A stretch of DNA of 64,000 nt. Origin: Chlamydiota bacterium. Lineage in GTDB: Bacteria; Chlamydiota; Chlamydiia; Chlamydiales; JACKPQ01. Location: positions 22,983-86,982 of the forward strand of contig JAJFLZ010000020.1 of the NCBI GenBank assembly GCA_021772435.1, read 5' to 3'. Positions 934 to 43,248 of the stretch are shown here, in pieces (position 1 is the stretch's first letter; every line of letters begins with the position of its first letter). The position numbers were made by a program, and so were the translations under genes. Under the pieces are notes generated by a model. It worked only from the letters and a program-made list of their open reading frames with translations. It made no database searches and was not told where the DNA came from.

Positions 934-1022
934 ACCTGAATTTCGGGTTTATATCATTCATTTTCAGGCATCTTAGTCGCTATCTTGCACCCTTTTTGTG
1001 CTTGTTACCCAAAACTCAGGTT
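933..1022 (+). mobile_element. MITE-like element, short 90-bp derivative (copy 1)
   Basis: Termini are AACCTGAATTTCGGGTTT...CCCAAAACTCAGGTT. It is flanked by ATG/ATG (930-932, 1023-1025). It matches the ends of the 166-bp copies at 38469 and 42856 and has an internal deletion of about 76 bp. Confidence 0.85.
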
Positions 1023-20522: not shown

Positions 20523-20537
20523 ACAAGTTATTTCTTT

Positions 20538-20692
20538 CGAGATTATCTTTTGGCGCATTTCGGATCCTTGCTCGGGGGCAGTACCACAGTACAGCACCCC
20601 TTGCGACGGACGCTCCCTTCGGGGCGCCCTCGTTACTTGCGTACTCGGGCCCAAACTGCATCCAAAACCTAGATCTCGTATCGTTGACTAAC
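20538..20692 (+). repeat. dispersed repeat family B, full copy (about 155 bp)
   Basis: Reverse-complement match to 63455-63610 along its whole length. Short terminal inverted CGAGAT. Internal GC hairpin GCGCTCCCTTCGGGGCGC. Confidence 0.85.
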
Positions 20693-25038: not shown

Positions 25039-25123
25039 GCTCGGGTGGTGGAATGGTAGACACAAAAGACTTAAAATCTTTTGGGGAGTAATCCCCGTGC
25101 GGGTTCGAGTCCCGCCCCGAGCA
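25039..25123 (+). tRNA. tRNA-Leu (anticodon UAA)
   Basis: Acceptor stem GCTCGGG/CCCGAGC. Anticodon stem AAAGA/TCTTT with loop CTTAAAA. Long variable arm GGGGAGTAATCCCC. T arm GCGGGTTCGAGTCCCGC. CCA is not encoded. Confidence 0.9.
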
Positions 25124-42599: not shown

Positions 42600-42616
42600 G
42601 CTTTGAGCTATAGCAT

Positions 42617-42731
42617 AACGCTAGCCTGGGATCAAATGTCTATGAGATTGCGTAGATTTTTGATGAGTTTTTCCTGGAAAGGTCGTAAAAAGATAGGTTA
42701 TATCATGGGCAGTTGATCCCAGGCTGGCGTT
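42617..42731. repeat. 19-bp inverted repeat enclosing 77 bp
   Basis: AACGCTAGCCTGGGATCAA (42617-35) pairs with TTGATCCCAGGCTGGCGTT (42713-31), with 1 mismatch. Confidence 0.6.
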
Positions 42732-42747
42732 AGTATATGCAAAAAAT

Positions 42748-43248
42748 GTGGGAAAGGGATAAGCCGGATTCTGTGTTTGGCAATCATTCCTCTAGGGTGG
42801 GTATTGCTACCACATCTCAAGCGTTTATTGAATCAAATAAGCGGACAACTTTAGTAACCTGAATTTCTTCGTTTATATCACTTATCTTCAGGCATTTTAG
42901 TCGCCATCTTGCACCCTTTTTGTGCTCATCTATAGCTTTTGGCTATCGAATCGCAAAAAATGGCACAATCTGTCACCTAATCTGCTCTGAATCTAAATAA
43001 TCTAAACCCGAAACTCAGGTTAGTATTTAATTCTCTTGCTTCGGATAGGGTTTACAGGCAAGGATTATTACTAACACCTTGGCTTGATCTCAAATCAAGC
43101 GTTTTCAGTCTATCTACTAAAAGAAGTAGCGAAATGTTTTCTGTTGCACTTTCCGTAGCCTTACGGCCCCCAGTCTTTCACTGGTATCCTGTCCTGTGAA
43201 GTCCAGACTTTCCTCTGCAAAAATTGCAGCGATTGCCTCCTTTCCCAC
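42748..43248 (-). ncRNA. rnpB: RNase P RNA (bacterial type A) interrupted by a 166-bp MITE
   Basis: The minus strand reads GUGGGAAAGG...GAGGAAAGUCUGGAC...AGUGCAACAGAAAAC...GUAAACCCUAUCCGAAGCAAG...[insert]...ACAGAAUCCGGCUUAUCCCUUUCCCAC. It has universal RNase P signature blocks and P1 pairing of the ends. Confidence 0.85.
42856..43021 (+). mobile_element. MITE-like element, 166-bp copy 3 (inside rnpB)
   Basis: Termini AACCTGAATTTCTTCGTTT...AAACCCGAAACTCAGGTT, flanked by AGT/AGT (42853-55, 43022-24). Confidence 0.88.

Follow-up and report, generated by a model that had tools for sequence, protein, structure and literature searches.

The rnpB locus

The window, by which we mean the whole 64,000-nt stretch of DNA from an uncultured environmental chlamydia that was analysed, carries on its minus strand a full-length bacterial class-A RNase P RNA gene, rnpB, whose sequence is interrupted by a palindromic mobile element (Table 1). 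In an Rfam scan of the whole window, the RNase P model RF00010 matched this locus with 198.9 bits (gathering score, 100 bits), covering model positions 1-367 without truncation; about 166 nt, located after the 5' strand of P16 and before P17, are unaligned and treated as an insert state. The motifs GAGGAAAGUC..., AGUGCnACAGAAA, GUAAACCC and ACAGAAnCCGGCUUA, together with the P4 strands, are all found in the cmscan alignment, and the two ends of the RNA pair over 10 bp to form P1. The full-length match, the signature motifs and the P1 pairing make the identification secure. They also bear out an earlier note on this DNA, which had recognized a type-A rnpB from the same motifs, had paired its ends as P1 and had named the covariance model as the appropriate check; the model spans the gene in spite of the insert. 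The type-A module P15-P16-P17 and the complementarity needed for the P6 pseudoknot are likewise present.

Upstream, the stop codon of a gene for a CT398-like protein, made up of a coiled coil plus a Zn-ribbon, abuts the first base of rnpB. Neither an rnpA nor an rpmH motif was found within the 64-kb window, and the only other Rfam match in it is a class II tRNA of 85 nt with a long variable arm (25039-25123, 62.4 bits).

Table 1. Coordinates of rnpB, its structural elements, its neighbour and the copies of the inserted element in the window.
Feature	Position	Strand	Basis or remark
rnpB (class-A bacterial RNase P RNA) with the insert	42744..43248	-	RF00010; 505 nt by Rfam bounds
P1 arms of rnpB	42748-42757 and 43239-43248	-	10-bp pairing; P1 ends at 42748
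CT398-like Zn-ribbon gene, 253 aa	43248..44009	-	Pfam PF02591, PF24481; synteny anchor
MITE copy inside rnpB, 164 bp, termini ACCTGAG...CTCAGGT	42857..43020	-	alignment of copies and duplications
Target duplication TAGTA (UACUA in the RNA), rnpB 5' side	43021..43025		alignment of copies
Target duplication TAGTA, rnpB 3' side, directly before P17	42852..42856		alignment of copies
P16 5' strand GAAUUAAAU	43025..43033	-	pairs with 42830-42838
P16 3' strand AUUUGAUUC	42830..42838	-	pairs with 43025-43033; helix covaries
P17 hairpin AAG-UUGUCCG-CUU	42839..42851	-	fold of the P15-P17 module
P6 pseudoknot 3' strand GUCC, in the P17 loop	42843-42846	-	complementary to J5/7 GGAC
P6 pseudoknot 5' strand, J5/7 GGAC	43191..43194	-	covaries with L17 across orthologues
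Sibling full-length MITE, intergenic, TAATA duplication	38470..38633	+	BLAST within the window
Internally deleted MITE derivative, 88 bp, TATGA duplication	934..1021	+	BLAST within the window

Several other repeats occur in the window. A second palindromic element, unrelated to the one inside rnpB, lies at 42616-42732, only 12-16 nt past the 3' end of the gene. It is about 117 nt long, 73% self-complementary, bounded by CTAACGCCAGCCTGGGATCAA and TTGATCCCAGGCTAGCGTTAT, and single-copy in the window; in the nearest relative, only 57 nt separate rnpB from the next gene. The Logan contig L004 breaks at 42716, inside this element, which suggests that the element is repeated elsewhere in the genome. 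There is also an inverted repeat pair of 154 bp (63464-63617 and 20531-20683, 81% identity), a pair of 140 bp (36023-36162 and 34834-34973, 99% identity) and a pair of about 1 kb (60771-61765 and 57983-59219, 94-98% identity). Such dispersed and duplicated sequences suggest a repeat-rich genome.

The inserted element is a MITE

When 42856-43021 was compared with the rest of the window by BLAST, the segment 38469-38634 matched at 92.8% identity and an internally deleted third copy was matched at 933-1022; the earlier observation that the element inside rnpB recurs at an intergenic site at 38469 is thereby upheld. These 64 kb of host genome thus hold three copies, and a 23-nt probe for the terminus of the element finds two sites where 0.00 are expected by chance. 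A 21-nt core common to the three copies has 12 matches in a collection of species-representative genomes, all of them in a single genome, the Chlamydiales MAG HK-STAS-VERR_A-4 (GCA_024233455.1), whose copies are 88-92% identical to the window copy. The genome of the nearest relative therefore holds at least 12 copies of the family.

All 14 full copies are flanked by perfect target duplications, the sequence of which differs from copy to copy. The duplication is 5 bp long in nine copies and 6-8 bp in the remainder, and it is of the T...A type in every copy but one (13 of 14, the exception being L026). Inverted termini, ACCTGAGTT.GGGTTTA, are found at both ends, self-complementarity amounts to 68% over the whole length, and the copy in rnpB is small (164 bp) and without a transposase. 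Since inverted termini, copy-specific duplications, small size and a large number of copies are the features that define a MITE, the insert in rnpB is a genuine MITE that arrived by true transposition. The earlier note had likewise argued for a true insertion with a target duplication, and the perfect duplications of the full copies agree with it, but the 3-bp duplication AGT/AGT that it proposed is too short: AGT is the inner part of a 5-bp duplication, TAGTA. The 3-bp model was replaced by one with duplications of 5-8 bp and termini ACC...GGT, which fits all 14 full copies, L026 included.

Termini that start with AC and a variable duplication length are reminiscent of the IS982 family. A solo terminus beside a transposase, as a sign of an autonomous parent, was found neither in the window nor in 12 x 8 kb of the relative's genome; a terminus-like site at about 3383 of L015 was considered as the end of a parent IS and rejected as a chance match inside an ordinary coding gene. 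A cyanobacterial origin of the DNA, and the Nezha and STRR repeat families as identities for the insert, were also considered and set aside, since the neighbouring proteins place the window in Chlamydiia. Two further observations concern the family itself. A duplication that varies between 5, 6, 7 and 8 bp while keeping a strong T...A pattern (L015-L026 and the window copies) is unusual for a single transposase, and the 88-bp derivative sits where ORFs 427-933 and 930-2507 meet, close to the start of a 525-aa ORF.

The insertion site lies between P16 and P17

The MITE landed in the 4-nt unpaired J16/17 linker, ACUA, and the reconstructed empty site of rnpB reads AATTAAATACTAAAGTTGTCCGC. On the 5' side, U43025 serves both as a base of the target duplication and as the last base of the P16 5' strand. 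P16 itself comprises 9 bp in the window and corresponds to the 9-bp helix described in the earlier note; it is real, and the pairing GAAUUAAAU/AUUUGAUUC of the window covaries with GACCAA/UUGGUC, GAGCG/CGCUC, GAAACGCA/UGUGUUUC, GGAAUCAU/AUGAUUCC and GAAUUGGUC/GAUCGAUUC in the orthologues. The placement of the insert in the P15-P17 region can be made more precise, namely to the J16/17 linker. The insertion does fall inside the 17-nt segment that had been taken for a loop, but this segment is not a plain loop: it consists of the ACUA linker followed by the P17 hairpin, which bears one strand of P6.

The succession of P16, linker and P17 is common to all six rnpB sequences whose modules were folded (the window and five orthologues), and in these the linker is unpaired, 3-7 nt long, located on the 5' side and variable in sequence. 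P6 covaries as well, the J5/7 strand and the P17 loop reading GGAC/GUCC in the window and GAAC/GUUC, GGGC/GCCC and GGAGC/GCUCC in orthologues. The P16, P17 and P6 pairs were derived from per-sequence folds; in the MAFFT alignment the P16 columns are out of register. Judged from these folds, P16, P17 and the covarying P6 would be left undisrupted by the insertion. P17 of the window has only 3 bp (AAG/CUU) and is weaker than in relatives, and a bulky arm 1 nt away from it could hinder the formation of P6.

Relatives, synteny and absence of the insert elsewhere

The closest homologues of the flanking 253-aa protein come from Chlamydiia, Simkaniaceae and Rhabdochlamydiaceae MAGs, the nearest being 79% identical. 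In five progressively more distant relatives, the genes are arranged as ClpP-SHMT, Zn-ribbon, rnpB, Xer recombinase and ABC-F, sometimes with an Exo_endo_phos gene between rnpB and the Xer recombinase, and rnpB follows the Zn-ribbon gene in L006, L008, L009, L010/L012 and L013/L014. The five orthologous RNAs are 326-341 nt long, start within a few bases of the Zn-ribbon stop and score 210-251 bits against RF00010, values that serve as a stand-in for scoring the excised window RNA. Removal of 169 bp from the window gene leaves 332 nt, or 336 nt by the Rfam bounds, and the 336-nt RNA aligns end to end with all five orthologues at 73-84% identity, the nearest at 84%. The excision to about 332 nt that had been carried out in silico from the sequence alone is thereby confirmed.

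Beyond these orthologues, conserved anchors revealed the position of rnpB in 68 of an additional 80 chlamydial metagenome loci, bringing the comparison to 73. A MITE-type insert at J16/17 occurs in none of them (0/73), and the possibility, raised in the earlier note, that relatives carry the same 166 nt at this position finds no example among these loci. The distance from one P4 strand to the other is 431 nt in the window versus a median of 272 nt and a maximum of 373 nt in the 73 loci, and the P15-P18 segment is 261 nt versus 73-133 nt (median 98). By these two measures, the insertion is unique to the window genome. Every chlamydial locus in which rnpB was located (the window and the 73) uses the position after the Zn-ribbon gene. 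The sister genome carries the same MITE family, yet its rnpB is uninterrupted, and on both counts it represents the state before the insertion.

The adjacency of the two genes is itself widespread, rnpB starting no more than a few bases from the Zn-ribbon stop in at least 74 chlamydial loci (the window, L006, L008-L014 and L027-L106). This suggests either that the two genes are co-transcribed and the transcript is processed, or that the 3' end of the Zn-ribbon gene contains a promoter. As a separate observation, the rnpB specificity-domain segments of L037 and L102 are about 85-90 nt above the clade median (P4-to-AAACCC length of 233-240 nt versus 151 nt) and may represent independent expansions, for instance in P12.

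Contigs across the junctions

The insertion is known from one metagenome-assembled genome and from one source population only. One reading is that the filled site is a faulty assembly of repeated sequence, or else an infrequent, mildly deleterious allele in a population whose sites are mostly empty. Short-read contigs do break inside the MITE, but L003 and L005, two Logan contigs from run SRR15505514, match the window at 100% identity and cross both junctions between unique rnpB sequence and the MITE, L003 reaching 42968 and L005 reaching 42926 from opposite sides, with a 43-nt overlap inside the element. These runs may be the source data of the MAG itself, so the contigs confirm the assembly rather than an independent population. 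Mis-joins certainly occur in assemblies of this kind, as the chimeric contig described below attests, but a perfect 5-bp duplication fitting the T...A pattern of the family would not result from a mis-join, and the MITE copy in rnpB has private substitutions of its own. No contig bridging an empty site was found for either flanking gene, and the empty-site allele had 0 matches in the JGI metagenome collection. An artefact or a transient allele is therefore highly improbable, and is to our minds the least probable of the readings considered here.

The chimera in question is L002 (Logan, SRR15505513), where an identical Zn-ribbon gene is followed by an uninterrupted rnpB of 232.7 bits. L002 equals the window over 1,940 nt and then diverges abruptly at about nt 112 of rnpB (about 43136 in the window). 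The sequence beyond this point and the folE fragment next to it are those of another chlamydial MAG, GCA_021772455.1, which has its own 258-aa Zn-ribbon, SHMT, ClpP and FolE genes around its own rnpB, so that L002 is an inter-species chimeric contig. The switch occurs within an exact 37-nt stretch common to the rnpB genes of the window and of GCA_021772455.1; by base composition the two sources of L002 are not separable. L002 was rejected both as an empty-site allele and as a second rnpB, being a join of two co-occurring species at their shared 37 nt. An uninterrupted second rnpB, the possibility that the earlier note had weighed against a functional interrupted gene, has L002 as its sole candidate in the same samples, and that copy belongs to another organism. 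The case is a caution against taking such public contigs as evidence for alleles. A further contig, L001, ends at 43144.

Predicted folding and conservation of the interrupted RNA

Because the MITE is nearly palindromic, its RNA would be expected to fold into a long imperfect hairpin of about 62 pairs. Folded alone, the insert indeed gives one long imperfect hairpin of -66.8 kcal/mol (z = -9.8 versus shuffles), and in the fold of the 501-nt RNA, 62 pairs are internal to the insert while the expectation for pairs joining it to the core is 0.00. The prediction agrees with the earlier proposal that the insert extrudes as a separate arm, and the local structure is predicted to be a three-way junction of P16, insert arm and P17. 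Within the insert, a single weak match to the terminator consensus was found, at the first 17 nt of the element. Matches to this consensus occur at chance frequency (2 found versus 1.2 expected), and an internal terminator that truncates rnpB was rejected on these grounds. Comparison of the insert with known RNA families gave only sub-threshold chance matches.

Outside the insert, the conserved features of the RNA are intact. The rnpB gene of the window differs at 4 of 176 clade-invariant columns, and the orthologues, each left out in turn and compared with the other five, differ at 4-12. Two of the four changes constitute a compensatory swap from C-G to A-U in the stem adjoining ACAGAAA. At clade-invariant positions, no excess of change is seen in the gene. 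The MITE copy inside it has 10 private states in 165 nt, and if these arose after the insertion, a neutral rnpB should have decayed more; the post-insertion origin of the private substitutions is an assumption, so this argument from timing is only suggestive.

These results bear on whether the gene is dead or dying, that is, whether the insertion inactivated rnpB and the cell is served by another rnpB copy or by a protein-only RNase P. Formation of P6 is reported to be critical for the activity of RNase P RNA, the insert sits right beside P17, and bacteria that carry both types of RNase P, few as they are, are on record (PMC9945441). Against such an inactivation, the interrupted copy is the ancestral syntenic one, in the position used by the window and all 73 other loci; its invariant positions show no excess of changes, one change being a compensatory pair; and the only candidate for a second rnpB in the samples is the one in L002, which belongs to GCA_021772455.1. 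A dead gene is in our estimation very improbable.

Retention or removal of the inserted arm

Intervening sequences (IVS) in bacterial 23S and 16S rRNA are removed by RNase III, often without religation. They add a hairpin to an essential structural RNA, within one of its helices or loops, where they are tolerated as independently folding units, and extended duplexes are the kind of substrate from which they are removed. To our knowledge, most rRNA IVS are without demonstrable transposon ends or target duplications. Their hosts are rRNA genes, whereas the host of the chlamydial insert is the gene of a ribozyme.

In its predicted fold, the insert resembles excised expansions and IVS in forming an extended helix separate from the core. 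The MITE hairpin might thus be cut from the primary transcript, for example by RNase III, to leave a functional RNase P RNA in two parts, about 225 and 105 nt long, that are joined through P1, P4, P6 and P16. An extended duplex of about 62 pairs with a perfect 13-bp helix at its base, as predicted here, would suit such processing, but the hairpin has many internal loops and no feature of the sequence requires it to be processed. A direct precedent is Thermodesulfatator indicus, whose type-A RNase P RNA also has a large lineage-specific extra segment. Its P12 expansion is removed after transcription in the native host and in E. coli, which leaves a fragmented RNA and indicates that a fragmented RNase P RNA can be a natural functional form (PMC9945441). 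The P RNAs of E. coli and T. thermophilus have moreover been reconstituted from separate halves (cited in PMC9945441). However, the T. indicus expansion is located at P12, in the other domain of the RNA, it has no known mobile-element origin, a protein-only RNase P is also present in that organism, and annealing of the T. indicus fragments into an active RNA failed in vitro (PMC9945441). Excision takes place in T. indicus, whereas in the chlamydial rnpB processing is only hypothesized. We consider it unlikely that the hairpin is cut out, and the same reserve applies to regarding the MITE as a transposon-born intervening sequence that gave rise, by a single transposition, to a naturally split RNase P.

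Probable tolerance of the insertion in a putatively permissive linker

The reading that we prefer, with a probability of about 70%, is that the only rnpB of the cell is functional and tolerates the transposition, which hit a permissive linker of the gene. A non-autonomous MITE, active in this chlamydial lineage, jumped into an ordinary syntenic rnpB, its landing site being the 4-nt P16/P17 linker, which is unpaired and variable in sequence. The hairpin would form the third arm of a junction between P16, insert and P17, leaving undisturbed the catalytic core, P15-P17 and the P6 pseudoknot. With these parts unharmed, the ribozyme would remain functional and the cell would tolerate the insertion. 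We infer that the arm folds independently in the cell and that the RNA is active. That the arm is also retained, and thus constitutes a freshly born, transposon-derived expansion segment of a ribozyme, has in our view about an even chance of being correct.

RNase P RNAs of the PVC group tolerate an extra P16.1 helix or other deviations in P15/P16/P17 (PMC9945441, citing Herrmann 1996/2000, Butler & Fuerst 2004). P16.1 is comparable to the inserted arm as an extra helix in the same region of the RNA and in the same superphylum, and by analogy this precedent suggests that the region tolerates additions. P16.1 and the other deviations fit a permissive linker only if P6 can still form. The arm in rnpB shares the P16.1-type position between P16 and P17 but not the lineage conservation: P16.1 is short, conserved in its lineage and of obscure origin, whereas the arm is 164 nt long, is found in one genome (0/73 others) and is the copy of a transposon.

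Palindromic, MITE-like repeats are tolerated in functional genes or structured RNA in other bacteria. For instance, Rickettsia palindromic elements are inserted in frame in protein genes (PMC10969869), and in Ca. Thiomargarita the dsrA group I intron harbours a MITE (PMC4853749). The hosts in those cases are protein genes or a self-removing intron, whereas here the host is the body of an essential trans-acting ribozyme. A literature search found no published MITE in rnpB or in another stable RNA gene. Vioque 1997 (Nucleic Acids Res 25:3471) is said to have described STRR repeats in helix P12 of rnpB from heterocyst-forming cyanobacteria, reportedly short tandem heptamer repeats that lengthen this existing helix of the specificity domain. 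The chlamydial insert, in contrast, is a transposon with inverted ends and a target duplication, and would give the catalytic domain an additional branch. For bacterial RNase P RNA in general, expansion and even fragmentation have been described before.

Significance

Ribosomal RNA and RNase P RNA are thought to grow by the accretion of new segments, the first origin of which can rarely be observed. As applied to RNase P, the accretion model has self-contained helical segments added onto an unchanged core (PMC12974513). The locus described here provides a before-and-after pair for such an event: the uninterrupted rnpB of the sister genome, and the rnpB of the window, in which the target duplication is still visible and the core is apparently still under constraint. 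The question is a tractable one, as both versions of the gene could be synthesized for the established E. coli complementation and in vitro cleavage assays. For annotation, the locus carries a warning: an rnpB of about 500 nt still scores above threshold, but with a longer insert the gene could be split or escape notice.

Should the RNA be active, a transposon would have supplied an essential ribozyme with a ready-folded new arm in one step, and J16/17 would be marked as a permissive site. The interrupted rnpB may thus illustrate, in nature, how a mobile element furnishes a ribozyme with an additional arm. Its value would lie in offering a dated case, transparent in its mechanism, of the way in which an expansion segment could originate.
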